Assembly: GCA_964532205.1 (NCBI GenBank) | Contig: CAZHGQ010000005.1 | Coordinates: 1,520 to 65,519, forward strand | DNA length: 64,000 nt | Source of the DNA: an uncultured Candidatus Saccharibacteria bacterium | GTDB taxonomy: Bacteria; Patescibacteriota; Minisyncoccia; Phycocordibacterales; JAKAEA01 | Direction of reading: 5' to 3' | In this document: piece after piece, positions 7,285-44,676 of the stretch | Layout: every line of letters starts with the position of its first letter | How positions within the stretch are numbered: position 1 is the first letter of the stretch | Notes under the pieces: generated by a model | What the model was told of the DNA's origin: nothing | What the model saw: only the letters and a program-made list of their open reading frames with translations | Database searches by the model: none | Translations under genes and position numbers: made by a program

Positions 7285-7369
7285 AGTCAGCGCTCTGGAC
7301 AGGCTTACTAATTGTTTAATACAAATTATCCCTACGAACAGACATAGTACTGTTGTATAATGGCTCTAT

Positions 7370-23134: not shown

Positions 23135-23140
23135 TTTTTG

Positions 23141-23527
23141 TGGAGATGGCGGGAATCGAACCCGCGTGCATGAGGTGTTCTTAGATATATCTACAGCGTC
23201 TAGTTTATCTCTTTGACCAAAGTCAATTTAAGTTAGTCGGATATGGGATAAACAAAATTTCCGAAAAACCGATTCTCATTTAGTTCGGCAGAAACAGAGA
23301 ACAGAAGCTGCCTAACCTGGCTTGATTACACCGGGACTAAACGCACCAGATTTGCGCTTAGGCGATGTCGCTTAGGCTAAAGCGTAAGCGAATTGAAAGT
23401 TCTTACTTGAAAAGTAAGGTGACTTTACAGAAGATTTTGCACTTCAGATTTCCGTCAGATTTAAGAGTTAACGGTGCTCTACGTTGCATAGATAAGATAC
23501 GGACTCATGTCTAGGCCGATCATCCCC
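23141..23527 (-). ncRNA. ssrA: tmRNA (transfer-messenger RNA)
   Basis: On the minus strand the 5' end is GGGGAUGAUCGGCC and the 3' end is GGUUCGAUUCCCGCCAUCUCCA, giving a tRNA-Ala-like acceptor/T-arm. An internal tag frame reads ...QFAYALA followed by UAA. It lies immediately downstream of smpB. Confidence 0.8.
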
Positions 23528-23711: not shown

Positions 23712-24149
23712 TCAACGATCTGTGAATTCGCGGCGAACATCACGCTCGACATCTCTCTTCTTAATAGACTCGCGTTTGTCGAATTTCTTTTTGCCGCGAA
23801 CGGTAGCAATTTCTACCTTAATGTGACGCCCTTTATTATACACTAAAAGTGGCACTATTGTCAAACCTTGTTCATGGCCAACTAGAGCCTTAATTTCGGC
23901 TTTTGTTAAAAGCAGTTTACGTGGGCGTAAAGGATCGGATTCGGGACCGTTATTTTGCTGGTAGGGTGAAACATACATGTTTTGCAGCCAGACTTGTGTG
24001 CCTTCGACTATAATATATGAGCCATCGAGCGAACCTTGACCAGCACGAATAGACTTGACCTCGGTGCCGGTCAATTCGATGCCGGCTTCGTAACGGTTAA
24101 GTATTTCGTAGTTAAAAGTAGCTTTGCGGTTGTGAATCAGGGTACTCAT
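23712..24149 (-). CDS. smpB: SsrA-binding protein SmpB
   Basis: MSTLIHNRKATFNYEILNRYEAGIELTGTEVKSIR is the SmpB signature; the track ORF is extended 5' to 24197. Confidence 0.9.
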   Translation of the reverse strand: MSTLIHNRKATFNYEILNRYEAGIELTGTEVKSIRAGQGSLDGSYIIVEGTQVWLQNMYVSPYQQNNGPESDPLRPRKLLLTKAEIKALVGHEQGLTIVPLLVYNKGRHIKVEIATVRGKKKFDKRESIKKRDVERDVRREFTDR

Positions 24150-24217
24150 GCGTCTATCATAGCAAATAGGGGAAATTAATGTATAATAACACTTCAATTA
24201 ACCATTAACGTAATATT

Positions 24218-26131
24218 ATGAACGAACCTCAGTTAAAGAGCCCAAAACCGGCCCCTCAGAAAGGTGGTCAGTTCGCGCGAAACCTGATTTTGGGCATATT
24301 TATATTGCTTATTTTGGCTAGCCTCTACTCAGTTATTGTTGATGGTCGAAGTAAAACGACTGAGATCTCAATTTCTCAATTAGCCTCTGATATTTCGGCT
24401 GGTAAGGTGGTGAGTGTGACGGTCAGTGGTACGGATTTGGAAGTTCACTACGATACCAAGGGTGAAGTGGTTAAAAAAGCCAAAAAAGAAACTGAAACAT
24501 CGTTGACAGATACGTTGGTGAATTATGGTGTGACACCGGCTCAGCTTTCGAAGGTGGCAATTGGTGTACAAGGGGATTCTGGTTTTAGTTACTGGTTATC
24601 CAATTTATTGTTGCCGATAATTTTGCCACTTATTTTGATTATTGTGATTGCTTGGTTCATTACTCGACAGGTACGCGGGGCTGGTATGCAAGCTTTTACC
24701 TTCGGTCAATCGAAAGCCCGCATTATTTCGCCTGACGATAAAAAACAGCGCGTGACGTTTAAGGATGTGGCGGGCGCTAAGGAGGCGAAAGAGGAACTAG
24801 CCGAGATCGTGGATTTTTTGCGCAACCCAAAGAAGTTTTTGGAAATTGGCGCCCGCATTCCAAAAGGTATTTTGCTCATGGGTGCGCCGGGTACTGGTAA
24901 AACACTGCTCGCTCGAGCGGTTGCCGGTGAAGCTCAGGTGGCATTCTTCTCAATTTCAGGTTCTGAATTCGTAGAAATGTTCGTGGGTGTCGGCGCTTCA
25001 CGTGTGCGCGATCTGTTTAAATTAGCTAAACAAGCAGCACCAGCCATTATTTTCGTTGATGAAATTGATGCTGTGGGTCGTGTACGTGGTACTGGTGTTG
25101 GTGGTGGTAATGATGAACGTGAACAAACGCTCAATCAGATTCTGGTAGAAATGGATGGTTTTGAACCAAATGAAAAAGTGATCGTTATGGCTGCAACTAA
25201 CCGTCCTGATGTTCTTGACCCAGCCTTGCTTCGTCCAGGCCGCTTTGACCGTCGTGTAACTATTGATCCGCCAGATCGCCACGATCGCGAAGAAATTTTG
25301 AAAATACACGCTCGAGAAAAACCATTTGCTGAAGATGTGAATTTGTCAGTTATTGCTGAGCGCACACCTGGTTTTTCTGGTGCTGATTTGTACTCACTTA
25401 TGAATGAAGGTGCAATCTTGGCAGCTCGGGAAAATCGCAAAAAGGTTTCGCAGTATGACCTTATTCGCTCAATTGAAAAAGTAATGCTCGGACCAGAACG
25501 TCGCAGTCATATTTTGAGCAAGAAGGAAAAAGAGGTCACGGCTTATCATGAAGCTGGTCACGCTTTGGTGGCGTCAGTTTTGGCAAATGCTGATCCGGTT
25601 CATAAAATCTCGATCATCTCTCGTGGTCGCGCGGCTGGTTATACATTGAAGTTACCGCTTGAAGATCGAAAATTGCAAACCAAAAAAGAATTTTTGGATG
25701 ATATAGCTATGAGTTTGGGTGGTTATGTGACTGAAAAGATGGTCTTTGGTGATGTGACAACTGGTCCGTCAAATGACCTGCAGGTTTCAACGGCTATGGC
25801 TCGTAGCATGGTCGCTCGTTACGGTATGTCTGAAAAACTTGGTGCCATGGCTTTTGAAGGTGATGGTGGCCGTGGGGCTTTCGGTGGTCGGGCTATCGAA
25901 GGTAAAGAGTACTCAGAAAAAACCGGCAATGACATTGATGATGAGGTTTCGCGCATTATGACTGAAGCTTATAAGCGGGCTGAAGAGGCAATTACTACTC
26001 ATCGTGGTCTGTTGGATGTCATTGCTAAACGTCTCATTGAAGTTGAAACTATTGAACGTGAAGAATTTGATAAAATTCTGGTTGCTCACGGTATTCAATT
26101 AAAAAAGAAATCGGAGGTTGAAACGTCTTAG
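24218..26131 (+). CDS. ftsH: ATP-dependent zinc metalloprotease FtsH
   Basis: N-terminal TM, an AAA Walker [22 protein letters not shown], and the HEAGHAL zinc motif. Confidence 0.95.
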
Positions 26132-26562: not shown

Positions 26563-26637
26563 GCGCCCGTAGCTCAGTTGGTAGAGCAGCCGTCTTATAC
26601 ACGGCCGGTCCATGGTTCGAGTCCATGCGGGCGCACA
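26563..26637 (+). tRNA. tRNA-Ile (anticodon UAU)
   Basis: Cloverleaf: acceptor GCGCCCG/CGGGCGC, D-arm TAGCTCAGTTGGTAGAGCA, anticodon stem GCCGT/ACGGC with loop CTTATAC (U33, TAT, A37), and T-arm CATGG TTCGAGT CCATG. Confidence 0.8.
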
Positions 26638-30306: not shown

Positions 30307-31107
30307 CTAGATCAAAAATACTTGACCTTTTTGTTTAATGAAGCCTTCTTTTTGCAGAGCTGATAAATTCATGTCGATTTTATCTTTATCAACGGTAATC
30401 AGCCTTTTGCGTAGTTGAGCAGCTGTTGCTGAAGTCTGTTGAAGCTCTTTTAAAATCATGGAACGAACTTCACGATTTGAACCTTTGAAAGGTGTCTGTT
30501 TAATGTAATGGCGACTTTTAGTATTGAGATTGCCGATGGTTTTTTTGAGCATTACGCCATAATCCATTAACGCGTAATACCACTCACGCGGATTTTCTGT
30601 ATCTAATGTTTCTTTAACACGTTTTAAAATATCTTTGTCATGCACGCTGTGTTTGTCATTGAAAAAGAAATGAATAAAAACAGTTCGGATATTGGTTTCG
30701 ATAATGGGGAAGGGTTGGTTGTAGGCAAAAGCCATGATTGCCCCGGCAGTATATGGACCAATGCCAGGCAATTCTAAAATTTCTTCGTATGTCTTTGGAA
30801 ATCGGCCGTGATACTTTTTTACTACAACCTCGGCAGTTTTTTTCAAAGCCAAAGCCCGGCGGTTGTAGCCTAAGCCTTGCCACTCTTGTAATACATCTGC
30901 CACTGGTGCGGCGGCTAGCTGTTCAACGTTCGGAAATTTTTTAAGCCACGAATCATATTTATTGACGACCCGGGCAGTCTGAGTTTGCTGCAACATGATT
31001 TCCGAAACCAAGACCCTATAGGGATTTTTAGTTTTTCGCCAGGCAAACGGTCGCTTATTTGCTCGGTAATATGAATATATAGTATTTACAAAGTCAGCTT
31101 TTTTCAT
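30307..31107 (-). CDS. HhH-GPD superfamily DNA glycosylase (Nth/MutY-like, no Fe-S cysteines seen)
   Basis: LELPGIGPYTAGAIMAFAYNQP is the HhH-GPD helix-hairpin-helix motif. The C-terminal ~70 aa lack the Cys4 cluster. Confidence 0.7.
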   Translation of the reverse strand: MKKADFVNTIYSYYRANKRPFAWRKTKNPYRVLVSEIMLQQTQTARVVNKYDSWLKKFPNVEQLAAAPVADVLQEWQGLGYNRRALALKKTAEVVVKKYHGRFPKTYEEILELPGIGPYTAGAIMAFAYNQPFPIIETNIRTVFIHFFFNDKHSVHDKDILKRVKETLDTENPREWYYALMDYGVMLKKTIGNLNTKSRHYIKQTPFKGSNREVRSMILKELQQTSATAAQLRKRLITVDKDKIDMNLSALQKEGFIKQKGQVFLI

Positions 31108-31204
31108 TCTGTCATTTTTTCCACACGGTTTCGTCTATAGCGTATATGATATACTACTTGAGTAAAAATTATAAATTGTAGTATATCGATTAAATCAAAA
31201 TTCT

Positions 31205-31300
31205 ATGGAGGCAGAACAAAACACCCAAGCTTCAGTCAAACAACCATTTGTTTGTCCAACCGATCCGGCAGAATTAGCTCAGTGCGACAGCTGTCAGTAG
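31205..31300 (+). CDS. 31-aa Cys-containing micro-protein with its own promoter-like A/T box and terminator
   Basis: MEAEQNTQASVKQPFVCPTDPAELAQCDSCQ* is not in the ORF track. A strong terminator starts 5 nt after the stop. Confidence 0.4.
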   Translation: MEAEQNTQASVKQPFVCPTDPAELAQCDSCQ

Positions 31301-31304
31301 AAAA

Positions 31305-31328
31305 GGCCACCCCCACGGGTGGTTTTTT
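31305..31328 (+). terminator. rho-independent terminator
   Basis: GGCCACCC CCAC GGGTGG followed by T6. Confidence 0.8.
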
Positions 31329-31432
31329 GTTGCTCTTGAAAAGGATTAATATGTGTGGTATTCTCACCGCCAGATATTGGTTTTAACTGTTGTGCGACAG
31401 TGAGCCAATAAACTGTTTGCTACGGAGGTAGT

Positions 31433-31741
31433 ATGTCAGTACGGATATGGCTACGAATCGTCATGGTCGTTGCTTGCGCTGCCTTTATGATCCCTGCATT
31501 AGTTGCTTCGGCTGGCTCGGCGCCACCCTCGGGTCGATACTCATGTGGGGTCGATAATCCAAGCTCGACCCAGTGCGCGCGAATGACGTCGAATTCACCC
31601 CTCGACTGCACGTCGACCATTAACGTCAAAACCGGCGCGGTAACCTATGCCTGCACGGTGCGTCAGCCACCAAAGAAAAATGGTGGCACGATGGCTTTTG
31701 AGGTGATCCGGCGGACTGATTTTGTTTACTCCCAGCAGTAG
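31433..31741 (+). CDS. small secreted 6-Cys protein
   Basis: Signal peptide MSVRIWLRIVMVVACAAFMIPALVASA. The mature ~75 aa carry 6 Cys; a terminator follows. Confidence 0.5.
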   Translation: MSVRIWLRIVMVVACAAFMIPALVASAGSAPPSGRYSCGVDNPSSTQCARMTSNSPLDCTSTINVKTGAVTYACTVRQPPKKNGGTMAFEVIRRTDFVYSQQ

Positions 31742-31756
31742 CGCGGCGTCCAGCGT

Positions 31757-31790
31757 AAAAGGCTGTCACCTTCGGTGACAGCCTTTTCTC
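31757..31790 (+). terminator. rho-independent terminator
   Basis: GGCTGTCACC TTCG GGTGACAGCC followed by TTTT. Confidence 0.85.
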
Positions 31791-31879
31791 ATGCCAATCC
31801 TACTATTGCGTAACACCAATATTTGTGGTATATTTTTAATAGGGTCCTTTGACATTTTACTTCTTGAAAGGAGATCGAT

Positions 31880-32725
31880 ATGAAGCGCGCAACACGCATG
31901 TGTACTATTGTCGCGGTGTTTCTTATCGCTACAACAGTCATGGCTGTGATTCGATATGTTCGAACGCCGCCAACACCGCATGGTCTGACGACTGTGCAGG
32001 TTGAAGGTTTCACTGCTCAAAACGAAGATACTGACAGTATCTTCAAAACGTTCTCGTTTGTGCCGATCACCGACGATCCGCAGGTGATTGAGTCGTTGGT
32101 GTTCCAAGCGGCTCGCAAAGAAATTTTCGAGCGGCAACAACAACGTTCTCTGTTATCAGAGCCTGACTTGCGTGATGCTTGTCGGGTTCTGGCCTGTGCC
32201 ATCACCAGCGATGCTGGCCGATCACGTCAGGATATGGAAAAAGATTTGGCCTATGCCAAACCTTTACCCATTCCAGTTTCGTTGGGTGAAAAGCTCGACA
32301 AACTGACGCCGGCCGAACAGTTCAAAGAATGTTTTGACCGAAAGCTGATTGAGAACCCACGACTTGTCGGTGTGTGTCTTAATGCACCAACGCAGTGTGT
32401 GATGTTTGTTGATCAGTGTGAGGTTTCGGCAGATTTGGCCCGCGGCTTTGCTCAAGTGAAAAGTCCGCCAGGTTTTTATCTGACGGAAACAATTTGTAGT
32501 CCGGCGTACGTGTTTCATCACGACCCGGATTACAAACAAATCGTGGACATGCCAATCCAAGTTCGCAGTCTAAGTTGCAGTATCCCAGTCAAAGACCAGG
32601 AAGGGAATATGTATCCGCTCAATCTGACGGTGTACAAAAGCCCAATCAATGGTCGCTGGTGGCTGCACCGAGCCTGGCGCACGGTGAACATGAAGGTTCA
32701 GGACTTCTGGCCGATTATTTTTTAG
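31880..32725 (+). CDS. secreted/anchored Cys-rich protein, unknown function
   Basis: N-terminal TM MCTIVAVFLIATTVMAVI; 10 Cys in total; no recognisable domain. Confidence 0.45.
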   Translation: MKRATRMCTIVAVFLIATTVMAVIRYVRTPPTPHGLTTVQVEGFTAQNEDTDSIFKTFSFVPITDDPQVIESLVFQAARKEIFERQQQRSLLSEPDLRDACRVLACAITSDAGRSRQDMEKDLAYAKPLPIPVSLGEKLDKLTPAEQFKECFDRKLIENPRLVGVCLNAPTQCVMFVDQCEVSADLARGFAQVKSPPGFYLTETICSPAYVFHHDPDYKQIVDMPIQVRSLSCSIPVKDQEGNMYPLNLTVYKSPINGRWWLHRAWRTVNMKVQDFWPIIF

Positions 32726-32736
32726 CTGGAGGTGCC

Positions 32737-33195
32737 ATGAAACGGAGTTTGCTCAATAGCGGTGTGCCACTGTTCGTGGTAGTACTGTTCGTGATTACAG
32801 GTTGTGCCAAAATCTTCAACATGTCCGAATTTAGGCATGACACTGACCAGTTTTGGTTGATGCCAACCTGGCTTCGAACATTGTTGCCGTTAATCGTGCC
32901 GGTCGCTGAAATCTGGGTGGCTTGTTTGATTCTACTACCAGTTACTCGACGGCCGGCCATGATGTGTGCGGGTCTGATGTTTATCGTGTTTGCCGGATAT
33001 CACATCTGGAACATCAAATACGGTACGGCAGCGTGTCATTGTTTGGGTGGTAATGTCTGGCTCGGGCTTTCCAAAAAAACTGCCGGCCTGTACATGATTG
33101 CCTTCAACGTGATGGCGTTGTGGTTGATTATGGAATGGTTGCTTGCACAACGAAAGGAGTTGTATGAAAAGGCTACGAGCATTCACGCTTGTTGA
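32737..33195 (+). CDS. MauE/DoxX-like 4-TM membrane protein (thiol-redox-associated family, tentative)
   Basis: An ATG at 32737 follows a good GGAGG RBS. The 152 aa form four hydrophobic helices with a CHCLGG motif in the last loop/helix. The track ORF is extended 5'. Confidence 0.45.
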   Translation: MKRSLLNSGVPLFVVVLFVITGCAKIFNMSEFRHDTDQFWLMPTWLRTLLPLIVPVAEIWVACLILLPVTRRPAMMCAGLMFIVFAGYHIWNIKYGTAACHCLGGNVWLGLSKKTAGLYMIAFNVMALWLIMEWLLAQRKELYEKATSIHAC

Positions 33196-34000
33196 GTTGC
33201 TGGTGGCCATCGGCATTATCAGCATACTCATTTCGATTTTGGTGCCGACGACAGTTTCGGCTCGTCGCCGAGCTCAACGCGCTGGTTGCTTGAGTAACTT
33301 GCGGCAAATTGCCCAGCTCGCTAATACATATGCCAGCCACAACAAGGGTCACTTGCCGGTGAATTCGATTTTGTTCAACACGCCCTCGAATCAGATCAAG
33401 GAAGATCTGTTGCCACCGCCATTCTTTATTTGTGTAGTGCAACAGGCGGCGGCCAAAGATCAGCTGGCATCACCAGCACCATGGCATTCAGTTATTGAAA
33501 AGAATGTTAAGGCTGCGCAAATTCTGCGTTGTCCGGCCGATTCTGTTCAAATGATTGAAGGTGGTGAAGGAGCCCTGGCTCGCTACTTTGTTTCGTTAAA
33601 CAATAGCGAATACCTGTGGTCGAATTCCCAGTGGTATATCGGTTCGAGTTACGTGCTCAACGGCGGCTTTGTGAATGAAAGCCGAGACCCGCGATTTCAA
33701 CATCGTTGGTACGGCAGCAATCCGGCCAAAGTGAAACGCTCATCAACAATGGTTCTGGCCGGTGATAGCTTTGTCAGCAAAGCGATGCAGATGTATTGGA
33801 CGCCTGAGCTGTTCAATTCGGCGACTACCATGACCTTGCTCGATGTTTATGAGGCGAATGACAATACGCTGTCGAATTTTCGATTGCGTAATCCATTCGA
33901 TGAACGACATCAGGGTATGGTCAACATTGTGTTCGTTGATGGTCATGCTGAAGCAATTGCAGTGAAAGATCTCAAGTGGTGCGATCTGCTGCAGAAGTAA
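33164..34000 (+). CDS. prepilin-type N-terminal cleavage/methylation domain protein with a C-terminal H-X9-DG (DUF1559) domain
   Basis: MKRLRAFTLVELLVAIGIISILISIL is a class-III signal. CLSNLRQIAQLANTYASHNKGHLP matches the DUF1559 head. The C-terminal HQGMVNIVFVDGHAE is His, then 9 residues, then DG. Confidence 0.7.
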   Translation: MKRLRAFTLVELLVAIGIISILISILVPTTVSARRRAQRAGCLSNLRQIAQLANTYASHNKGHLPVNSILFNTPSNQIKEDLLPPPFFICVVQQAAAKDQLASPAPWHSVIEKNVKAAQILRCPADSVQMIEGGEGALARYFVSLNNSEYLWSNSQWYIGSSYVLNGGFVNESRDPRFQHRWYGSNPAKVKRSSTMVLAGDSFVSKAMQMYWTPELFNSATTMTLLDVYEANDNTLSNFRLRNPFDERHQGMVNIVFVDGHAEAIAVKDLKWCDLLQK

Positions 34001-34019
34001 ATGTTTGTTCTATTTAAAA

Positions 34020-34047
34020 GCCCCGACGCTACGCGTCGGGGCTTTTT
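34020..34047 (+). terminator. rho-independent terminator
   Basis: GCCCCGACGC TAC GCGTCGGGGC followed by T5. Confidence 0.85.
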
Positions 34048-34053
34048 GTGTGC

Positions 34054-34341
34054 TCAAGGTGCTTGGTGTCCTTTCTTTCCATCGACGTAGTTCTGAAGTT
34101 TCCATTCTTCGACAGCATTACGGAATGCGTGTCGCAGACGTGACAGATTGGCCTCGTAATTTGGTGCCGCTTCGTCCTGGAAAACCTCCATATAGTCGGC
34201 ATAAATCTCCTGGACTTTAGGTGACATTTTAGCCACCCGTTGGGCCACGGTTAGCGACCGATCATCTTCGTCGTCTGGAACGGTATTGGGGATGGATTCG
34301 GGCACAAATCCTCCTTGGTACGAATTTACAAATCGACCCAT
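34054..34341 (-). CDS. hypothetical acidic protein (95 aa)
   Basis: ORF only; no convincing RBS. Confidence 0.3.
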   Translation of the reverse strand: MGRFVNSYQGGFVPESIPNTVPDDEDDRSLTVAQRVAKMSPKVQEIYADYMEVFQDEAAPNYEANLSRLRHAFRNAVEEWKLQNYVDGKKGHQAP

Positions 34342-34397
34342 ACAGCACGGGTCTTCTGAAGGAGACTATATACTATATATACAAGAGTATCAATGTG

Positions 34398-34486
34398 CGG
34401 AGACGCAGGGATTCGAACCCTGGAAGCCGTTTAAAGGGCTTACCTCGTTAGCAGTGAGGCGCTTTCGACCACTCAGCCACGTCTCC
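34398..34486 (-). tRNA. tRNA-Ser (anticodon GCU)
   Basis: The minus strand reads GGAGACGTGGCTGAGTGGTCGAAAGCGCCTCACTGCTAACGAGG...long variable arm...GGGTTCGAATCCCTGCGTCTCCG. The anticodon loop CUGCUAA gives GCU. Confidence 0.85.
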
Positions 34487-34540
34487 GTGGGTTTCAACTT
34501 ATCATATTTTTTTAAATTCGGCGAGCGTATAATATAACAT

Positions 34541-34972
34541 ATGCACCACGTCGCCATCATGAACAAATCCTGGCATTTGATTGAGAAAATTCTCAGCGGT
34601 GAAAAAACGATTGAATCACGCTGGTATGCTGCGCGTCGGTCACCGTGGAATATGGTAAAGGCTGGCGACACAATTTATTTTAAAAATTCGGGTGAAGATA
34701 TAACTGCGACTGCTAAGGTAAAAGCGGTGGAGCAATTTGAAATATCATCTTTGAAAGAGGTAAGGGATATAATAAAAAAATACGGTCAAGAAATTTGTTT
34801 GGTGAATACCACACCTGAAATGTGGGGCAAAATAGTTAAATACTGTGTATTAATGTGGTTGATTGAGCCGCGTGAACTGAAACCATTCGCTATTACCAAG
34901 AAGGGGTTTGGTAGTGCCGCAGCTTGGTTGAGTGTTTCCAATATTAATAAAATAAAAATGAGATATAATTAA
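34541..34972 (+). CDS. ASCH (PUA-like) domain protein
   Basis: LSGEKTIESRW matches the ASCH GxKxxExR motif; 143 aa. Confidence 0.55.
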   Translation: MHHVAIMNKSWHLIEKILSGEKTIESRWYAARRSPWNMVKAGDTIYFKNSGEDITATAKVKAVEQFEISSLKEVRDIIKKYGQEICLVNTTPEMWGKIVKYCVLMWLIEPRELKPFAITKKGFGSAAAWLSVSNINKIKMRYN

Positions 34973-34975
34973 GGT

Positions 34976-35707
34976 ATGAATCTAACATCAGACACAAAAT
35001 CATCGCTCGGTTTTATTATTAGTATCGGCCTCGTCATCAGCGCCATTATTTTTGGCAGCTTCTATTATCTTGCTCAAACCTCAACATCAAACAACTCTTT
35101 GTCAGTCACTGGCTCAGCAAAAGTTCACGTCACATCAGATCAGGCTAAATTGGTAGTTGGCATTGTGCACACAGTTCCCGTCAGTGGTTTGTCTGGTGGA
35201 TATGCTTCTGTGGCAAAAGATTTGGCAGCAACAAAAGCTCTGTTAACTCAGCAGGGTATTGAGACAAAAGATATTGTGGAAAGTCCGGTCTTAATGAATC
35301 AGGTGTATGATTCAAATAGTTCGGCTGAGACACGCTATGATTTGCGCCAGACTGTGACACTGCAATCAAATGATGTGCAAAAGTTAACAAACATTTCAAA
35401 GAAAATTCCTAGTTTGGCTTCTCAGGGTGCAATTGTTTCAATTCAGTCTTTAGAGTATTACTATTCTAAACTGCCTGATTTGCGAGTTTCATTATTGGGT
35501 GAAGCGATCAAGGATGCTAAGGCTCGAGCCGAAGAAATTGCTAAGGGTACAGGTCGTCATGTGGGCACTGTTCGATCGGCTTCGACTGGTGTAGTGCAGG
35601 TTCTACCATTAAATTCTGTTGATATTTCTGATTATGGTACATACGATACCTCAAGCATTGAAAAAGAGATTATGGTTACGACCAAAGCGACATTCGGACT
35701 AAAATAA
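34976..35707 (+). CDS. SIMPL/DUF541-like secreted protein (tentative)
   Basis: N-terminal TM; VTGSAKVHVTSDQAKLVVGI...YSKLPDLRVSLLGEAIKDAKARAEEIAK resembles BP26/SIMPL organisation. Confidence 0.5.
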   Translation: MNLTSDTKSSLGFIISIGLVISAIIFGSFYYLAQTSTSNNSLSVTGSAKVHVTSDQAKLVVGIVHTVPVSGLSGGYASVAKDLAATKALLTQQGIETKDIVESPVLMNQVYDSNSSAETRYDLRQTVTLQSNDVQKLTNISKKIPSLASQGAIVSIQSLEYYYSKLPDLRVSLLGEAIKDAKARAEEIAKGTGRHVGTVRSASTGVVQVLPLNSVDISDYGTYDTSSIEKEIMVTTKATFGLK

Positions 35708-35719
35708 AAAGATAAAAAA

Positions 35720-35750
35720 GGCCCCCGAGCGCGTAGCGCTCGGGGGTTTT
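35720..35750. terminator. bidirectional rho-independent terminator
   Basis: GCCCCCGAGCGC GTA GCGCTCGGGGG followed by TTTT, with an A-run upstream. Confidence 0.85.
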
Positions 35751-35780
35751 ATCTGCCATGTACCGACCGGACACGACAGA

Positions 35781-36023
35781 CTAGCGGGGTAGTTCGTCAA
35801 TAACAACGTCTGATAGGGCCATGCCGCGCTCAGCGAAGTAATGTTCGTAGGACTTTTGGTCGGAAAAGATCTTGGTAGTAACACTACTACCGCTCATGAA
35901 GCCGGCGATGATCTGGGCTTCCGGGTGGGCTTGGCGTTGAGTCTGAATTTCTGTCTCAATGCATTTAAGCAGTGGGGCAGGAATTTCTTTGGTATAACCC
36001 GGAATCAATTGCATGATAGGCAT
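35781..36023 (-). CDS. hypothetical protein (80 aa)
   Basis: ORF only. Confidence 0.3.
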   Translation of the reverse strand: MPIMQLIPGYTKEIPAPLLKCIETEIQTQRQAHPEAQIIAGFMSGSSVTTKIFSDQKSYEHYFAERGMALSDVVIDELPR

Positions 36024-36069
36024 CGTTCCTCCATGTTAAACAACTGATCATTAGCTTAACACTATTTTA

Positions 36070-36800: not shown

Positions 36801-37910
36801 ATGGGCATTCTTAGCAATCTTTTTACCAAGAAATCTGGCAGCGTCGTTGGCGTTGATATCGGCTCATCATCTATTAAAGTTGTGCAGCTCGCTCGCCTAG
36901 GTGGTAAAGCTGTCCTTGAAACATACGGCGAGCTCGCCTTAGGTACATACGGCGGCGTTGAAATTGGCCGCTCAACAAATTTAACTCCTGAAAAAATTGC
37001 TGAGGCACTTAAAGATGTCATGCGTGAATCAAAAATCACGACAACAAACGCTGGTTTCGCTATTCCATTCGGCGCCAGTTTGATCACGGCTATGGATATG
37101 CCAGCTGTTTCAGACAAGCAACTCGAACAGATGATTCCAATCGAAGCCCGCAAATATATTCCGGTACCGATTACCGAAGTCACTCTAGACTGGTCTGTGG
37201 TGCCCAAGACTGCTTCAAAACCGATTGATTTTTCAAGCGATGAAAAACAAACCGATCAGGGCGACAAGGTTGAAGTCATGATGGTGGCCATTCATAATGA
37301 TGTGCTCAATAAATTTCAGACCATTGTTCAACAAAGTGGTGTCAACGCTTCATTTTTTGAAATCGAAATCTTTAGCACGATTCGATCTGTGCTCGATCCT
37401 GAACTTGAAACTCAGATGATTGTTGATCTCGGAGCAGCAACAACCAAGCTGTATATTGTTGAGCAGGGAATTATCCGCACCTCACACATTGTAAATCGTG
37501 GCTCACAGGACATTACCTTAGCTCTTTCTAAGGCTCTAAACATTACCGTGGAAACCGCTGAGGCTTATAAGCGCGATCTGACTCAAGTGCCTGACGATCA
37601 GAAAGAAAACTTTGCTCAAATCGCTAACATTAGCCTCGATTTTATCTTTTCCGAGGTTAAACGTATCCTGCAGAACTATCAGAAGAAATATAATAAGGAT
37701 ATTCCAAAAGTTATCATGGTGGGTGGTGGTGCCCGACTCAACGGCGTGCTAAAAATCGCCGAAAATCATCTTGAAACACAAATTGTACTCGGTGATCCAT
37801 TCGAAAAGACTGAAGCCCCAGCTTTTTTGGAAGAAGTTCTTAAAAATACCGGCCCAGAATTCACGGTAGCCATGGGTACAGCCCTGCGAAAACTTCAAGA
37901 AATGAATTAA
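36801..37910 (+). CDS. pilM: type IV pilus assembly protein PilM (actin-like ATPase fold)
   Basis: SVVGVDIGSSSIKVVQLAR...; 369 aa; first gene of the pilus locus. Confidence 0.85.
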   Translation: MGILSNLFTKKSGSVVGVDIGSSSIKVVQLARLGGKAVLETYGELALGTYGGVEIGRSTNLTPEKIAEALKDVMRESKITTTNAGFAIPFGASLITAMDMPAVSDKQLEQMIPIEARKYIPVPITEVTLDWSVVPKTASKPIDFSSDEKQTDQGDKVEVMMVAIHNDVLNKFQTIVQQSGVNASFFEIEIFSTIRSVLDPELETQMIVDLGAATTKLYIVEQGIIRTSHIVNRGSQDITLALSKALNITVETAEAYKRDLTQVPDDQKENFAQIANISLDFIFSEVKRILQNYQKKYNKDIPKVIMVGGGARLNGVLKIAENHLETQIVLGDPFEKTEAPAFLEEVLKNTGPEFTVAMGTALRKLQEMN

Positions 37911-37960
37911 GTGGAAAACTTATTGCGCGCTTTACAAAATGATGTGCTAAAATAAGGGGA

Positions 37961-38653
37961 ATGGAGAATAAGTTTCAAACGTCGTTCATTCCACAAAAGC
38001 CGCTCACTCAGACTTTCAGTCAACCGCCTCGTACCACCAACTTCTTTACGCTGGTTTCTACCATCATATTTATCACTATTTTAGCCTTATGTGGCGGTGT
38101 TTTCGGTTATCAGAAATATTTGCAAAATCAAAATGCTAATTTTGCTGAGCAGCTGCGCAAAATTACGGCCGAATTCCAACCTAGTTTCTTGTCAGAAATG
38201 ACGCGTTTAGATAATCGTTTGGTCTCAACCAAAACCTTACTCGCTAATCACTTGGCAGTTTCCAAATTCTTTGATTTCTTGAGCAAAAATACCTTGAAAA
38301 ATGTCCGTTTCTCAAGTTTTTCATATGTCTCTGACGGTACAAAGATTACAGTTTCAATGAAGGGGCAGGCTAATGGTTTTGCGGCGGTGGCTTTGCAATC
38401 TATGGCCTTCGGTACGGCCGATAATCTCAAGGTGTTACGTAACCCAACCATTGGTGATCTCAATCTCGATGCTTCAGGCAATGTTTCATTCGGTTTTGCT
38501 ACGTATATTCAGCCAAACTCAATGTTGTATCGCAGTGCGTTAGTCCCTGCACCTGTTGTTCCAGCTGCGACAATTGCTCCTGGTACAACAACAGCTTCAA
38601 CTACACCGTCACAAACAGCAAGTACAACATCGACAACAACCAAAAAACGCTAA
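37961..38653 (+). CDS. pilN: PilN-like bitopic pilus assembly protein
   Basis: A single TM after ~30 aa, a coiled/periplasmic domain, and a Thr/Ser-rich tail; position after pilM. Confidence 0.55.
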   Translation: MENKFQTSFIPQKPLTQTFSQPPRTTNFFTLVSTIIFITILALCGGVFGYQKYLQNQNANFAEQLRKITAEFQPSFLSEMTRLDNRLVSTKTLLANHLAVSKFFDFLSKNTLKNVRFSSFSYVSDGTKITVSMKGQANGFAAVALQSMAFGTADNLKVLRNPTIGDLNLDASGNVSFGFATYIQPNSMLYRSALVPAPVVPAATIAPGTTTASTTPSQTASTTSTTTKKR

Positions 38654-38654
38654 T

Positions 38655-39194
38655 ATGAAATTTCTAACCCCACTCATTCTCATAGGTCTTTCTGTCGCAG
38701 CGTTTTTCTTCTATATTAATCCGACCTACACCAATATTGGCGCCCTGCGAAAAGATAATGCTCAATATAAAGAGGCTTTGGCCAATGCTCAAGTTGCTCA
38801 GGAACACTGGAATCAATTGCGTTCACGATATGATAGTTTGACCGGTGATCAGTTGATTCGTTTGAAGAAGTTTATGCCGGATAAAGTTGATACGATTAAA
38901 TTAGCAGTAGATTTGAATGCTGTTGCTGAAAAATATGGTAAGGGTGTACGCAACATTAAATTTGCTGATGCACTTGAGCCAGCTGGTGATGTCGGATCAG
39001 GCGGTAAGCCATATGGTACAACAGCCGTTAGTTACGATGTGACCATGACGTATGACAATTTCCTTCGATATTTAAAAGATTTGGAACAGAGTTTGCAATT
39101 TATTGATATTACAAACATTGGTTTCCAGCCGGCGTCGACAGCTGATGCGACATACAACTTTACTCTGACCCTTAAGACCTATTGGTTAAAATAA
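38655..39194 (+). CDS. pilO: PilO-like pilus assembly protein
   Basis: An ATG at 38655 follows the pilN stop. It gives MKFLTPLILIGLSVAAFFFY (TM) and then a coiled-coil. The track ORF is extended 5'. Confidence 0.55.
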   Translation: MKFLTPLILIGLSVAAFFFYINPTYTNIGALRKDNAQYKEALANAQVAQEHWNQLRSRYDSLTGDQLIRLKKFMPDKVDTIKLAVDLNAVAEKYGKGVRNIKFADALEPAGDVGSGGKPYGTTAVSYDVTMTYDNFLRYLKDLEQSLQFIDITNIGFQPASTADATYNFTLTLKTYWLK

Positions 39195-39195
39195 T

Positions 39196-39546
39196 ATGCC
39201 ACGTAAATCATACAAAGGAACAGTTTTCACTATCGTTGCTTTACTTATTGCTGCGGCTATTGGTTATGACACCGTAGTTGGTCCACCTGCATCAGCTCAA
39301 AACTTAGAGACGACAGATGTTAATGCGGCTGAAACTGGTGTGGTCAGTCAGCAATTCACCGATTTACTCAATCGGATTCAAGCGCTCAATCTCGATACAA
39401 GTATCCTTAATGATCCAGCTTTTGCCAGCTTGACTGATTATTCAGTTACGTTGGTACCGGTTGAGTCAGGTCGTCCTAATCCTTTCGCGCCACTTAGTTC
39501 TGCTGCACAATCTACCCAAACTACAAACACACCTAAGGGGCGATAA
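39196..39546 (+). CDS. small bitopic pilus-locus protein (PilP-position), unknown
   Basis: TM FTIVALLIAAAIGY followed by a Thr/Ser-rich tail. Confidence 0.4.
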   Translation: MPRKSYKGTVFTIVALLIAAAIGYDTVVGPPASAQNLETTDVNAAETGVVSQQFTDLLNRIQALNLDTSILNDPAFASLTDYSVTLVPVESGRPNPFAPLSSAAQSTQTTNTPKGR

Positions 39547-39552
39547 TTTTTC

Positions 39553-41292
39553 ATGACATTACTTGAGGCCCTGGTACAACAAAATATTTTGACTGCCAAA
39601 GAGGCAGCCAATGTTCAGAAGGAAATGAACGATACCGGCCAAACGGTTGAGACTATTTTGGCTGCCAAGGGTATTGATGCACAGGATGTGCTCAAAGTTA
39701 AAGGCTCATTGTTTGAAGTGCCAACAAAACATGTAGCAGCAGATGATGTGCCGTATAGTGTTTTGGAATATATTCCCGAAGAATCTGCTAAACATTATCG
39801 TTTTGTACCGCTCGGTGTTAAAGATGGTGTGCTCGAGGTTGGTGTGGTTGATCCTGACAGTATTGAAGCCCGCGATGCACTCAACTTTATCTCTTCGAAA
39901 ATTGGTTTACCATACAAAATTTTCTTAATCTCTGAAGCTGATTTTGAAAAAATTCTCGGCGTTTATCAAGGTCTGTCTGGTGAAGTGACCAAGGCGCTCG
40001 ATGAATTGGAAACAGAATTGAAACCCGATGCGATTTTAGCGCAAGACGAAGAGAAGGAGGAGCGGGAGGGGAATGATGTTACTGATAAAATCAAAACGGA
40101 AGCTAAAATTGTTGAGGATGCACCAGTTACAAAAATTGTGGCCACTGTTTTGCGATACGCTGCTGAAGGTAATGCCTCCGACATTCACATTGAACATATG
40201 CGTGACAATGTGCGCGTGCGTTTCCGCGTTGACGGTGTTTTGAATACAAGCTTGGTTTTACCGATTAAAGTTCATTCGGCTTTGACTGCCCGTATTAAAA
40301 TTTTGTCGAATATGCGTCTCGACGAAAAACGTAAGCCACAAGACGGTCGTTTTTCGGCAAAAATTGATGGTCGTAAAATCGACTTCCGTGTCTCAACATT
40401 CCCAACGTATTATGGCGAAAAAATCGTTATGCGTATTCTCGATCAGGAAAAGGGTGTAAAGGAATTGACGGAGATGGGTCTGACGGCTGAGGGGGTAGAG
40501 CGCATTAAAAAGGCCATCACTAAGCCATATGGCATGATTTTGATTTCTGGTCCAACTGGTTCCGGTAAAACGACCACATTGTATTCTATGCTTAACTTGG
40601 TTGACCGAGAAAAGAAGAACGTGCTTTCACTTGAAGATCCTATTGAATACAACATTGATGGTGTGAGTCAGTCACAAGTGCGTCCGGAAATTGGTTATAC
40701 CTTTGCCACGGGTTTGCGTACGACCTTGCGTCAAGACCCGAACGTTATCATGGTCGGCGAGATCCGAGATAAAGAAACAGCGCAGCTTGCTGTGCAAGCT
40801 GCGCTGACTGGTCACTTGGTGCTCTCCACTATCCACACCAACAACGCTGTAGGTGTCATTCCACGTCTAATTGATATGGGTATCGATCCGTACCTGATTG
40901 CACCCACACTTGTTTTGGCCATGGCTCAGCGTCTTTCTGCGACACTGTGTCCTGATGGTGGTAAAGATGTGCCGGTAGAAGGCAGTCTCGAGCTCATTAT
41001 TGAAAAACAATTCGCTGATTTACCTGAAGAATTTCGTAAGAATATTAAAATTCCAAAAACCGTTAAGGAAATTGCACCAACACCTGATTGTCCAACAGGC
41101 ACCCGTGGTCGTATTGCTGTCTTCGAAATGTTTGAAATTGATAAGGAAGTTGAGCATGCAATTTTAACCAATCCAACTGAGTTGGAAATTAACAAGATTT
41201 TGCGCAAAAAAGGTATGTTGACTATGCGTGAAGATGCCATGCTTAAGGCTTTCAAAGGCCAGATTCCATTCGAAGAGGTTAACAAATTATAG
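39553..41292 (+). CDS. pilB: type IV pilus assembly ATPase PilB (GspE family)
   Basis: Walker A ISGPTGSGKTTTLYSML, Asp/His boxes and a tetracysteine-like CPDGG...CPTGTRGR. Confidence 0.9.
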   Translation: MTLLEALVQQNILTAKEAANVQKEMNDTGQTVETILAAKGIDAQDVLKVKGSLFEVPTKHVAADDVPYSVLEYIPEESAKHYRFVPLGVKDGVLEVGVVDPDSIEARDALNFISSKIGLPYKIFLISEADFEKILGVYQGLSGEVTKALDELETELKPDAILAQDEEKEEREGNDVTDKIKTEAKIVEDAPVTKIVATVLRYAAEGNASDIHIEHMRDNVRVRFRVDGVLNTSLVLPIKVHSALTARIKILSNMRLDEKRKPQDGRFSAKIDGRKIDFRVSTFPTYYGEKIVMRILDQEKGVKELTEMGLTAEGVERIKKAITKPYGMILISGPTGSGKTTTLYSMLNLVDREKKNVLSLEDPIEYNIDGVSQSQVRPEIGYTFATGLRTTLRQDPNVIMVGEIRDKETAQLAVQAALTGHLVLSTIHTNNAVGVIPRLIDMGIDPYLIAPTLVLAMAQRLSATLCPDGGKDVPVEGSLELIIEKQFADLPEEFRKNIKIPKTVKEIAPTPDCPTGTRGRIAVFEMFEIDKEVEHAILTNPTELEINKILRKKGMLTMREDAMLKAFKGQIPFEEVNKL

Positions 41293-41310
41293 TGTGATAT
41301 ACTAAACCAT

Positions 41311-41709
41311 ATGGAACAAAAACCGTTATACAAAGTAATGTTGGTTGATGACGACTCGTTTCTCTTGAATATGTATTCGCTTAAGTTTACTAAAGCGAAT
41401 TGTGAGGTTAATGCCTGCCAAACTTCGGCTGATGCCCTAAAAAAGCTCAAGGAAGGCTACCAACCTGACATTATTATTTTGGATATCATCATGCCAGGTA
41501 TGGATGGTTTACAGTTGTTGGAAGAAATTCGTAAAGAAAAATTGGCGCCAGGTGCGACAGTGGTCATGCTAACAAATCAGAGTGACACGAATGATATCGA
41601 AAAGGCCAAGAAACTTAATATTAACGGTTACATAGTCAAAGCTACGACAATTCCGTCAGAAGTTATTGATGATGTGACAAAGATTCATAAACAAGCAAAA
41701 GGGTCATGA
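41311..41709 (+). CDS. CheY-like response regulator receiver domain (stand-alone)
   Basis: KVMLVDDDSF...DIIILDIIMPGMDGLQLL...VVMLTNQ...KATT has the receiver-domain D/D/T/K pattern. Confidence 0.8.
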   Translation: MEQKPLYKVMLVDDDSFLLNMYSLKFTKANCEVNACQTSADALKKLKEGYQPDIIILDIIMPGMDGLQLLEEIRKEKLAPGATVVMLTNQSDTNDIEKAKKLNINGYIVKATTIPSEVIDDVTKIHKQAKGS

Positions 41710-42773
41710 GTACAGACTACAAAAAGTTACTTGATGAGTTAGTGGAGATCATAGTTAAAGAAGGTGGTTCAGATTTACACCTCGGTCAAGGCCGTACACC
41801 GTATATTCGCGTGGCCGGTTTTTTGATTCCTTTGGTAAAAATGTCCGTATTGTCCTCAAATGATATGTACGGTTTGATTGACCATTTGATGACGCCGGAA
41901 AATAAGCAGATTTTTATTACTCAAAAAGAAATCGATTTTTCATTTGGTCATGCGAGCGGCGCACGTTTCCGTGGTAATGGTTATTTCCGACAGGGTATGC
42001 CCTCGATCGCTTTACGTCTTGTGCCAAAACACATTAAGACACTCGAAGAATTAAATTTGCCGACAATTTTGGAAAGTTTTACCCGCAAGAATCAAGGTTT
42101 CTTCTTGGTGGTCGGCCCAGTGGGTCATGGCAAATCAACAACATTGGCTTCGATGATTGACCTTATCAACTCTGATCGTCTCGAACACATCATCACTATT
42201 GAAGATCCGGTTGAGTATATTTACGAACCGAAGAAATCAATTATCGATCAGCGTGAAGTGCGCATGGATACCAAAGATTTCCATACCGGTCTTACAGAAA
42301 TGTTGCGTCAGGACATCAATGTGGCGTTGATTGGTGAAATGCGTGATTTGGAAACAATTTCAACTGCTGTAACTGCTGCGGAAACTGGCCACTTGGTCTT
42401 TTCAACGCTCCATACCAACAATGCTGCTCAGACCATTGAACGTGTCATTGACTCATTCCCAGCGGATCAGCAAGGTCAAATTCGTATGCAATTGGCGGGT
42501 AGCCTGACCGGCATTTTCTCACAGCGTCTTATCCCACGAGTTTCAGGCGGTCTAGTGCCAGCGTATGAATTGTTGATCAATAACAGTGCTGTTTCAAACT
42601 TGATTCGTGAACGCCGCACACACGAAATTCAGACGGTGATCGAAACAAGTTCTCAGCAGGGTATGATCGATATGAACCGATCTTTGGCCGAGCTTGTACG
42701 TTCAGGTGAAATTACTATTGAGAATGCTTATCGCTTCTCATTAAATCCAAAGATTTTGGAAAAACTGATTTAG
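41706..42773 (+). CDS. pilT: twitching-motility / pilus retraction ATPase PilT
   Basis: VVGPVGHGKSTTLASMI Walker A; 355 aa; GspE-family core without the N1 domain. Confidence 0.9.
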   Translation: MSTDYKKLLDELVEIIVKEGGSDLHLGQGRTPYIRVAGFLIPLVKMSVLSSNDMYGLIDHLMTPENKQIFITQKEIDFSFGHASGARFRGNGYFRQGMPSIALRLVPKHIKTLEELNLPTILESFTRKNQGFFLVVGPVGHGKSTTLASMIDLINSDRLEHIITIEDPVEYIYEPKKSIIDQREVRMDTKDFHTGLTEMLRQDINVALIGEMRDLETISTAVTAAETGHLVFSTLHTNNAAQTIERVIDSFPADQQGQIRMQLAGSLTGIFSQRLIPRVSGGLVPAYELLINNSAVSNLIRERRTHEIQTVIETSSQQGMIDMNRSLAELVRSGEITIENAYRFSLNPKILEKLI

Positions 42774-42774
42774 T

Positions 42775-43983: not shown

Positions 43984-44129
43984 GGCCTTATTTAGGCACT
44001 TATCCACAACGTAAATATTGCGGAGTGCTTAAGTGGTATATAATTAAGCATATCGATTTAAAGCGGCCCGTCTCGCTCGAGAGATCAGGGACGAGTCGAT
44101 TAAATAAGTTAATTATTAATAGTAAAAAA

Positions 44130-44603: not shown

Positions 44604-44623
44604 TCTGAGTGTTGTCTAAACAA

Positions 44624-44648
44624 AAAACCACCGCAAGGTGGTTTTTTG
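44624..44648 (+). terminator. rho-independent terminator after pilA
   Basis: CCACC GCAA GGTGG followed by T6. Confidence 0.8.
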
Positions 44649-44676
44649 TTACATGTATACATGATAGAATAAACCA

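Follow-up and report, generated by a model that had tools for sequence, protein, structure and literature searches.

The locus described here raises two questions: what is encoded by the GC-rich block that separates a MutY-like glycosylase gene from tRNA-Ser(GCU) in an uncultured Candidatus Saccharibacteria bacterium, and how did the block come to occupy this position? The sequence examined is a 64-kb stretch of contig CAZHGQ010000005.1 [GenBank assembly GCA_964532205.1], referred to below as the window, in which the block extends over positions 31140-34396. An earlier reading of this DNA (the original prediction) had proposed a horizontally acquired module for the export of cysteine-rich peptides. 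The core of the block was found to be a set of four co-oriented genes, designated A, B, C and D (31433-34000), which forms a rare, conserved cassette present in few Patescibacteria. Gene A predicts a small secreted protein, gene B a membrane protein with a single membrane span, gene C a MauE-like membrane protein and gene D a type IV pilin-like protein of the DUF1559 family.

Conservation of the cassette at six loci

An exhaustive HMMER search of 1.84 billion representative proteins with the gene B protein returned a family of only six members. A word-indexed homologue search with the same query found only the query itself, and the family was reached by the exhaustive search alone. All six gene B homologues lie beside genes for a small protein with four conserved cysteines, a MauE-like protein and a DUF1559 prepilin. 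In addition to the window, the cassette is found at loci L081, L082, L087, L091 [assembly GCA_035438625.1, annotated as Candidatus Paceibacterota] and L093. The predicted proteins are 90-127 aa (A), approximately 245-310 aa (B), 148-175 aa (C) and 277-296 aa (D) in length, and identities to the window copy are 29-38% for A, 22-41% for B, 24-38% for C and 41-53% for D, which is the best conserved member. In L093, gene A has been relocated downstream on the opposite strand but is still adjacent to the other three genes, and the spacing between genes B, C and D in the cassettes is about 10 nt where they do not overlap. The reading frames of all four genes are intact in all six copies, and the immediate neighbourhood is different in each. 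That every frame is intact despite this divergence and the differing neighbours indicates that the four genes are under selection as a unit.

No matches to gene B were detected in a metagenome scan or in a scan of IMG/VR, and the same scans with gene D retrieved only generic DUF1559 proteins or pilin N-termini, with none of genes A, B or C nearby. Likewise, A, B and C had no matches in the 80 viral loci fetched with gene D, nor in 80 metagenome loci.

Genes for methionine sulfoxide reductases (Msr), which repair oxidized proteins, lie near two of the six cassettes. In L082, msrA and msrB are directly upstream (7046-7973), and in L081 an msrB gene (6569-6970) is located about 1.2 kb upstream. 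This proximity could be coincidence.

Proteins encoded by the cassette

Gene C (32737-33195, plus strand) encodes a protein of 152 aa, the start codon having been placed by comparison with homologues. It had been described as a MauE-like protein with four transmembrane (TM) segments and a CHCLGG motif, and this description is borne out by a match to PF07291 of 60.9 bits (cut-off 27, E = 2e-16), by four hydrophobic segments and by the presence of the motif. A MauE match is also on record for the homologues in the five other loci. Across the six sequences, C100-x-C102 between hydrophobic segments 3 and 4 and Glu58 in TM2 are invariant, and a Lys in TM1 is present in five of the six. The residue that follows CxC is Leu in four copies and Phe in one, and is deleted in the remaining copy, with the Gly conserved. 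The CxC loop is predicted to face outwards from the positive-inside rule only. This subfamily of MauE is so divergent that a profile search with the gene C alignment recovered cassette members only.

MauE proteins from two phyla have recently been found to replace DsbB in Escherichia coli in motility and PhoA assays, and their active site is a CXC in the TM3-TM4 loop followed by a conserved Phe-Gly, mutation of the CXC abolishing activity [bioRxiv 10.64898/2026.03.05.709764]. A conserved Lys in TM1 and Glu in TM2 are located at the predicted quinone site of these enzymes [bioRxiv 10.64898/2026.03.05.709764]. On the basis of its sequence, gene C is probably a DsbB-like disulfide-forming enzyme. 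The original prediction had linked a thiol-redox membrane protein of the MauE type to exported cysteine proteins, and this part of it holds, as MauE has since been shown to be DsbB-like [bioRxiv 10.64898/2026.03.05.709764].

Gene D (33164-34000, plus strand) overlaps gene C by 32 nt and predicts a 278-aa protein that begins with the prepilin leader MKRLRA/FTLVELL (the slash marks the expected cleavage site), in which F+1 and E+5 are invariant. It matches PF07596 (DUF1559) over residues 39-272 with 33.9 bits (cut-off 23.3), and the N-terminal methylation families PF07963 with 27.3 (cut-off 21.2) and TIGR02532 with 21.3 (cut-off 16.3). Its assignment as a prepilin with a DUF1559/H-X9-DG domain is supported by PF07596, by PF07963 and by the literal motif H249-X9-D259-G260, which is invariant in the cassettes. 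However, the score for TIGR04294, the model for this motif, is 15.1 and below the cut-off of 19. Residues Cys42 and Cys123 are likewise invariant in the cassettes, and in a wider set of 54 DUF1559 relatives their conservation is 90% or higher. The PDB sequence matches of gene D fall on the pilin alpha-1 helix and place it with the type IV pilin fold. The nearest DUF1559 proteins outside the cassettes are 26-34% identical to gene D, and those that are named come from lineages of the Planctomycetota-Verrucomicrobiota-Chlamydiota (PVC) group (Kiritimatiellia, Tepidisphaerales and similar).

Gene A (31433-31741, plus strand) is preceded by GGAGG located 5 nt before the ATG and encodes a 102-aa protein with a signal peptide that ends in a VASA/GS cleavage-type site of the AxA type. 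The core motif, YSCGxD-x6-C-x10-C-x14-C, includes four Cys that are invariant in the six copies and is followed by a basic patch and a variable tail. The protein had been described as secreted, with six Cys and a terminator of its own. The secretion signal and the terminator (31757-31787) are present, but there are five Cys rather than six, one of them inside the signal peptide. No match to gene A was found in Pfam, NCBIfam or PHROG, and it has no sequence relatives in the PDB.

Gene B (31880-32725, plus strand), with an AGGAG ribosome-binding site, encodes a bitopic membrane protein of 281 aa. An N-terminal TM helix (about residues 2-27) is joined by a linker to a helical region, which precedes a C-terminal alpha+beta domain similar to NTF2-like/cystatin-like folds. 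The protein had been called a secreted protein with ten Cys. This is not upheld, as the window copy has nine Cys, none of which is invariant across the six copies, and the N-terminus resembles a membrane anchor with no obvious cleaved signal peptide. Gene B has no sequence relatives in the PDB and no match in BFVD.

Promoters, terminators and a structured leader

Two promoter-like sites on the plus strand precede the cassette genes. The first, TTGAAA-17-TATTCT with an upstream TG (31336-31364), would serve gene A, and the second, TTGCGT-17-TATATT with the extended -10 sequence TGTGGTATATT (31806-31834), would serve genes B, C and D. The two share an extended -10 motif, TNTGGTAYWNT, which is found at 31354-31364 upstream of gene A and at 31824-31834 upstream of gene B, and which is kept in each of these positions in five of the six loci. 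It occurs three times in the 64-kb window, and two of these occurrences are the sites before A and B. About 10 nt downstream of the -10 element for B-C-D is the box GTCCTTTGACA (31844-31854, plus strand; consensus GTYCTYTGACR), also kept in five of the six loci and the sole exact match in the window. From its sequence and position, the box could be an operator or an element of the 5' untranslated region. Conservation of the -10 motif and the box is seen at the DNA level in five of six loci, even though identity between the proteins is no more than about 40%.

Gene A is followed by an intrinsic terminator composed of a perfect 14-bp stem and a T-run (31757-31787, plus strand), and a strong intrinsic terminator is found downstream of gene A at all six loci. 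The 5' leader of gene A contains a two-part hairpin (31375-31410, plus strand) in which an outer stem is followed by a 5' bulge and then by an inner stem (31386-31401). Equivalent hairpins with differing sequences are present at all six loci (for example, L081 ~8094-8132, L087 ~9600-9641 and L091 ~9416-9453), with an outer stem of 7-10 bp, a 5' bulge of 2-4 nt and an inner stem of 5-8 bp, and the leader folds have z-scores of -2.6 or lower in four of the six. As gene A leader alignments made with MAFFT were poor, the comparison is based on six individual folds. The recurrence of one fold in differing sequences suggests a conserved RNA structure in the gene A leader, which has no match in Rfam.

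Composition and boundaries of the block

The GC content of the block is 0.483, compared with 0.436 in the rest of the window, and that of the coding part (31433-34000) is 0.494 versus 0.437, the maximum among all windows of the same size (z = +3.1). GC content at third codon positions (GC3) is 0.51-0.59 in the four cassette genes and 0.412 +/- 0.048 in 21 host genes. The visual impression that the block is richer in GC than its flanks is therefore confirmed by both sliding GC and GC3. The tetranucleotide profile is less clear. The distance does peak at the block (z = 2.95 in the 3-kb window from 31501), but neighbouring host windows reach values almost as high (up to z = 2.7), making this a weak signal.

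On the left, the block adjoins the MutY-like glycosylase gene (30307-31107), and on the right tRNA-Ser(GCU) (34397-34486, minus strand), the 3' end of which points to the block, in agreement with the position originally given. The tRNA is a host gene that keeps its place beside mutY in relatives without the cassette. The left edge of the GC-rich DNA is marked by a GC-rich hairpin with a T-run that is terminator-like on both strands (31301-31328), and the right edge of the cassette by a bidirectional terminator with a perfect 14-bp stem (34016-34046), which is common to gene D and a convergent open reading frame (ORF) of 95 codons.

Two small ORFs in the block fall outside the conserved unit. 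The ORF at 31205-31300 (plus strand) would encode a 31-aa peptide with three Cys (MEAEQNTQASVKQPFVCPTDPAELAQCDSCQ) and is a doubtful gene. It had been credited with its own promoter-like box and terminator. The terminator (31301-31328) is present, but no promoter was found in the scan and there is no Shine-Dalgarno sequence upstream, in contrast to genes A and B, and no counterpart lies upstream of gene A in L081, L082, L087, L091 or L093. The peptide has no family matches, and searches of the spacer (31108-31432) and of the rest of the block against Rfam gave no match. The ORF ends directly at the strong hairpin terminator just outside the cassette, and may represent a remnant, a micro-gene confined to this lineage or a small RNA. 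The second ORF (34054-34341, minus strand), which was not included in the original prediction, lies between gene D and the tRNA, predicts an acidic 95-aa protein and has its own promoter-like site (34393-34365). No significant family matches were found for it, it is absent from the other five cassette loci, and it is unlike its positional counterpart in the syntenic relative L001. Its position is the variable slot that separates tRNA-Ser from mutY, where relatives have unrelated small genes.

Evidence for relocation

Four relatives with conserved synteny (L001, L004, L062 and L039) were fetched through the MutY neighbour. The closest syntenic relatives of the window are labelled Parcubacteria, Patescibacteria or Paceibacterota. 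The four share with the window the order FtsH-RecG-MutY-tRNA-Ser(GCU)-...-ComF-PilM, with RecG proteins 63-71% and FtsH proteins 78-83% identical to those of the window. The cassette is missing from the MutY-tRNA-Ser-ComF interval in all four, and the gap between mutY and the tRNA is only 0.5-1.1 kb, with unrelated small ORFs. Identical copies of window proteins were not found on other contigs, all host proteins being singletons at 90% identity.

Acquisition from elsewhere is thus supported in part. Composition is distinct, the cassette is absent in four syntenic relatives, and five other genomes or contigs carry the same cassette in unrelated places. However, a recent import from Planctomycetes is not shown, as the nearest DUF1559 proteins outside the cassettes are so distant. 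Integration targeted to the tRNA, as the position next to tRNA-Ser had suggested, is not supported. No integrase was found, no direct repeat of the tRNA 3' end was detected with 8-nt seeds, local alignment of the tRNA to the left flank was no better than to control regions, and the adjacency of tRNA-Ser(GCU) and mutY is ancestral in the lineage.

One further copy is in a setting of a different kind. The cassette on contig SRR28493910_12890 (76 kb; loci L087 and L097) is located within about 31 kb of 45 co-oriented small ORFs, nearly all without Pfam matches, and its GC content equals that of its surroundings (L087 1-20840, L097 1-21248). No phage hallmark gene (terminase, capsid or portal) was found in these 31 kb, and there were only a few weak PHROG matches. 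From its gene content the region looks like a large phage or other mobile element. The few weak matches among its ORFs are to NUDIX, an Rv2179c-like exonuclease, a nucleoside deoxyribosyltransferase, SpoU, BubE and a ribosomal L12-like protein. Taken over all loci, the cassette is an accessory, relocatable module.

The host type IV pilus cluster

Genes for a complete type IV pilus system lie 2.8-14 kb downstream of the cassette (36801-48227, plus strand). The cluster includes PilM, two unassigned genes, PilB, a response regulator, PilT, PilC, pilins and the prepilin peptidase PilD (45754-46596, plus strand). Three of the pilins have 4, 4 and 2 Cys, respectively, and Gly at position -1, and there are three further minor pilins with an N_methyl domain. 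The six pilin-like host proteins are encoded at 44025-45754 and 46583-48227. Since PilD is present, gene D could be processed by the host, and a functional tie between the cluster and the cassette is inferred. The Cys content of the host pilins implies that the cell needs extracytoplasmic disulfide formation even without the cassette.

Other features of the window

The interval between mutY and comF (31108-36069) varies against the relatives and has the look of a gene-turnover hotspot, only tRNA-Ser(GCU) being common. L001, L004 and L062 lack counterparts of an ASCH-domain protein (34541-34972), a SIMPL/DUF541 protein (34976-35707), an 80-aa ORF (35781-36023) and the 95-aa ORF. ARAGORN predicted a second tRNA of the Ser type, with the unusual anticodon ACU, beside tRNA-Ser(GCU) in L001 (9235-9322) and L039 (744-833) and none in the window. 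Upstream of the block, transfer-messenger RNA (tmRNA; 23138-23527, minus strand) is located beside SmpB (23712-24197, minus strand), followed by FtsH (24218-26131) and tRNA-Ile(UAU) (26563-26636), and L001 shows the same tmRNA/FtsH/tRNA-Ile neighbourhood. A 170-aa PAS-domain protein with an N-terminal Mu Com-like zinc ribbon (PF10122) is encoded at 21323-21835 and adjoins a GAF-domain protein (20832-21326).

Comparison with known systems

The original prediction held that this combination of genes matches no described system, and this has stood up, as no literature linking MauE to pilins was found and there were no PADLOC or PHROG assignments. Several known systems resemble parts of the cassette. 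Gene C is like other MauE proteins in its PF07291 match, its four hydrophobic segments, the CxC-[L/F]-G between segments 3 and 4, the TM2 Glu and the TM1 Lys. It differs in having His or Ser rather than Gly or Ala as the residue between the two Cys, Leu in many copies in place of Phe, and no thioredoxin-fold partner nearby, and it belongs to a divergent subfamily that is embedded in a pilin operon and is not a stand-alone generalist. In the mau (methylamine dehydrogenase) cluster, MauE is also encoded beside a small exported protein that needs multiple disulfides to function, the Cys-rich MauA light chain, which is matured by MauE/MauD. However, MauA, MauB, MauD and MauG were not detected in the block or its neighbours with Pfam or NCBIfam, and gene A is unrelated to MauA.

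The DUF1559/H-X9-DG family of Planctomycetota and other PVC bacteria (PF07596, TIGR04294) shares with gene D the prepilin motif, the domain match, the Cys pair and the C-terminal H-X9-DG. These relatives form large paralogous families without a MauE neighbour in those examined, one of them (P0012) lying between a LacI regulator and an ATP-binding cassette (ABC) transporter, whereas gene D is present in single copy in a Patescibacteria genome and is locked to three partner genes.

Disulfide formation in a pilin-like protein is known from Bacillus subtilis, where BdbDC acts on the competence pilin ComGC [PMC10246001, citing Meima et al. 2002]. B. subtilis is likewise monoderm, and ComGC needs a membrane thiol-disulfide oxidoreductase pair for its intramolecular disulfide. 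However, BdbC is a homologue of DsbB and not of MauE, works with the thioredoxin-like BdbD and is encoded outside the pilin operon, and ComGC is a small major pilin whereas gene D is a 278-aa DUF1559 protein. A second parallel is the sublancin operon of SPbeta, sunA-sunT-bdbA-sunS-bdbB, in which BdbB is encoded in a prophage-borne cluster [PMC6391423]. This operon resembles the cassette as a mobile element with a small, highly expressed, Cys-containing secreted product and its own membrane disulfide oxidase. It includes a leader peptide, an ABC/peptidase exporter, a glycosyltransferase and an immunity gene, but no pilin, whereas the cassette lacks the first four and has a pilin.

The block is also like tRNA-associated islands in lying on the 3' side of a tRNA gene, in its atypical composition and in being absent at this site in relatives. 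It is unlike them in that it lacks an integrase and a second copy of the tRNA 3' segment, a variable ORF of host type separates the tRNA from the cassette, and the adjacency is ancestral.

Proposed role of the cassette

We give about an even chance to the reading that the cassette is a self-contained, horizontally mobile unit that supplies an extra type IV pilin-like surface protein together with the means to fold it. In such a scheme, the leader of gene D would be cleaved by the host PilD, and the mature protein would become part of the host type IV filament or be primed onto it, or alternatively be retained as a membrane-anchored pseudopilin. The outward CxC loop of gene C would introduce the disulfides of the co-encoded exported proteins, of which one would be expected in D (Cys42-Cys123) and two in A (from its four invariant Cys). 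Gene A would be a small Sec-secreted or surface-associated component, and is probably the most abundant product because it has its own promoter and its own terminator. Gene B may act as a non-catalytic membrane scaffold, or as a partner on which A and/or D dock. The most plausible biological role would lie in adhering to, or interacting with, a host cell or a partner cell.

This reading is supported by the strict linkage of A, B, C and D in six contexts and by the fact that C has the features of a MauE oxidase while A and D, but not B, carry invariant Cys. It also draws support from the pilin character of gene D, with PilB, PilT, PilC, PilM, PilD and six pilins encoded by the host downstream, and from the precedents of BdbB in the sublancin operon and of BdbDC acting on ComGC. 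Autonomy and mobility are supported by the promoters within the cassette, the -10 motif of which is nearly confined to it in the window, the terminator after gene A at all six loci, the terminator-like hairpins at both edges of the window copy, the raised GC and GC3, the absence from relatives and the differing flanks, which for one copy consist of 31 kb of co-oriented ORFans.

Several observations weigh against it. Within gene C, the residue between the active-site Cys is His or Ser and not the usual Gly or Ala, and Leu often replaces Phe. MauE is thought to act via a thioredoxin-fold partner, and such a partner is frequently, although not universally, fused to it or encoded next to it. Fusions to thioredoxin-fold domains account for about 8% of MauE proteins [bioRxiv 10.64898/2026.03.05.709764, a March 2026 preprint]. 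No thioredoxin-fold domain was detected with Pfam or NCBIfam in A, B, D or nine neighbouring proteins scanned, and this absence from the cassette counts against the scheme. Neither quinone biosynthesis nor a respiratory chain is generally attributed to Patescibacteria, a lineage regarded as quinone-free, which leaves a DsbB-like gene C with an unexplained electron acceptor. For gene D, residue -1 is Ala in five of six cassettes whereas the host pilins have Gly. As the host pilins themselves contain 4, 4 and 2 Cys, the cell may already own a general disulfide system, or gene C may serve these pilins instead. With respect to mobility, no integrase or transposase domain was found in any ORF in 31108-34396, and no att repeats were found. 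Elevated GC is seen in five of six cassettes across hosts of differing GC and, because it recurs in this way, may be intrinsic to the cassette genes and not a mark of import. Finally, between L081 and L093 the identities of RuvA, MurE and Fpg are 38, 51 and 43%, and those of D, B and C are 43, 39 and 47%. Where both can be compared, divergence of the cassette is similar to that of host housekeeping proteins, which speaks against recent import.

Alternative explanations

If the product of interest were gene A rather than gene D, the cassette could be a secreted effector system similar to that of sublancin, with A as a Sec-exported two-disulfide payload (a toxin, bacteriocin-like or signalling factor), C as a dedicated oxidase, and B and D in immunity, release or display. 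The promoter, structured leader and strong terminator of gene A at all loci are the pattern of a highly expressed structural gene with accessory genes, and the four invariant Cys and basic patch of A, the pairing of a Cys peptide with BdbB on a mobile element in SPbeta, and the phage- or mobile-element-like contig that holds one cassette copy point in the same direction. We nevertheless regard this as fairly unlikely. Gene A has an ordinary signal peptide and no leader peptide, and was unlike any bacteriocin family in Pfam, NCBIfam and PDB searches, no ABC/C39 exporter, modification enzyme or recognisable immunity gene was found, and the best-conserved member is the pilin-fold protein D, which is without a role in known bacteriocin loci. 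A narrower form of the idea, included in the original prediction, is a cluster for a bacteriocin or other ribosomally synthesised and post-translationally modified peptide with the 31-aa three-Cys peptide as precursor. This must be considered highly improbable even though that ORF and its terminator are directly upstream of the cassette and a thiol-redox membrane protein is present. None of the five other cassettes contains the ORF, which places it outside the conserved unit, and it lacks a Shine-Dalgarno sequence. No conserved leader-bearing precursor or immunity gene was found. Searches with Pfam and NCBIfam revealed no radical S-adenosylmethionine enzyme, YcaO, LanM, cyclodehydratase, peptidase or ABC exporter, and no defence or bacteriocin model in PADLOC or PHROGs was matched.

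The remaining alternatives retain the pilus as the centre of the system and differ in the origin of the cassette. It could be an old, vertically inherited accessory operon for type IV pili, in which the MauE-like protein is the general DsbB equivalent for all Cys-containing pilins and the island-like appearance results from rearrangement and loss in relatives. The Cys of the host pilins, a divergence like that of housekeeping proteins and a raised GC in five of six copies that may be intrinsic are all consistent with this, as are the short distances to pilus genes (2.8 kb in the window, and about 8-9 kb to PilM in L081 and to the T2SSE ATPase in L093) and the location of the L081 and L093 cassettes in the same broad RuvA-MurE-Fpg-S20 neighbourhood. 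However, type IV pili are widespread in Patescibacteria, whereas the family has only six representatives in 1.84 billion proteins. This rarity, together with absence from the site in four relatives with conserved synteny, immediate flanks that differ at every locus, a copy inside phage-like DNA composed only of ORFans, and a promoter motif that is specific to the cassette and not host-wide, makes vertical inheritance unlikely. At the other extreme, the cassette could be a moron of a phage or mobile element for which type IV pili serve as receptor, with D as a decoy or capping pilin that, with its helpers, blocks superinfection or alters the dynamics of the host pilus. The L087/L097 copy, among 45 co-oriented small ORFs, a few of which weakly match PHROGs, and with a GC equal to its flanks, fits such an origin, pilin-like genes are present in IMG/VR viral contigs, and the N-terminus of gene D weakly matches several phage protein families, including a 'pilin' moron family. 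Yet the 31 kb of L087/L097 hold no terminase, capsid or portal, queries with B and D found no cassette relative in IMG/VR and A, B and C are absent from the 80 viral loci fetched with D, and the window and four other loci have ordinary chromosomal neighbours with no prophage genes, so that this explanation appears very unlikely.

A bolder version of the preferred reading, of a mobile pilin-like protein supplied with its own folding enzyme, can be advanced only tentatively. The cassette may be a portable surface module that moves among Patescibacteria, possibly on phage-like elements, and that combines a PVC-type pilin, a novel secreted mini-protein with two disulfides, a novel NTF2-like anchor and a private MauE oxidase, so that cells without a general, quinone-linked Dsb system could display disulfide-bonded adhesins on type IV filaments for attachment to the host. 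If this were true, promoters carried by the cassette and a structured 5' leader not described before would govern expression of the module, and its MauE enzyme would work without a thioredoxin-fold partner and without endogenous quinone.

Implications

The cassette joins a substrate-linked disulfide oxidase with type IV pilin accessory genes. Of the four families that meet in it, one was characterised recently (MauE), one is large and unexplained (DUF1559) and two had not been seen before (A and B). Its reach is narrow at present, with six known copies, very rare families and a biological role that is inferred. That MauE is a general enzyme of disulfide formation became clear only in 2026, and the cassette ties it to few candidate substrates, a two-Cys pilin and a four-Cys mini-protein, so that substrate specificity, partner requirement and electron acceptor become directly testable. 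DUF1559 accounts for one of the largest unexplained expansions of paralogues in Planctomycetes and has no known function. A much simpler entry point to this family is offered by a member that is present in single copy in a minimal genome and is locked to three partners. Type IV pili are central to the episymbiotic lifestyle of Patescibacteria, and host attachment would be open to diversification through a mobile cassette that supplies a new protein of pilin type.

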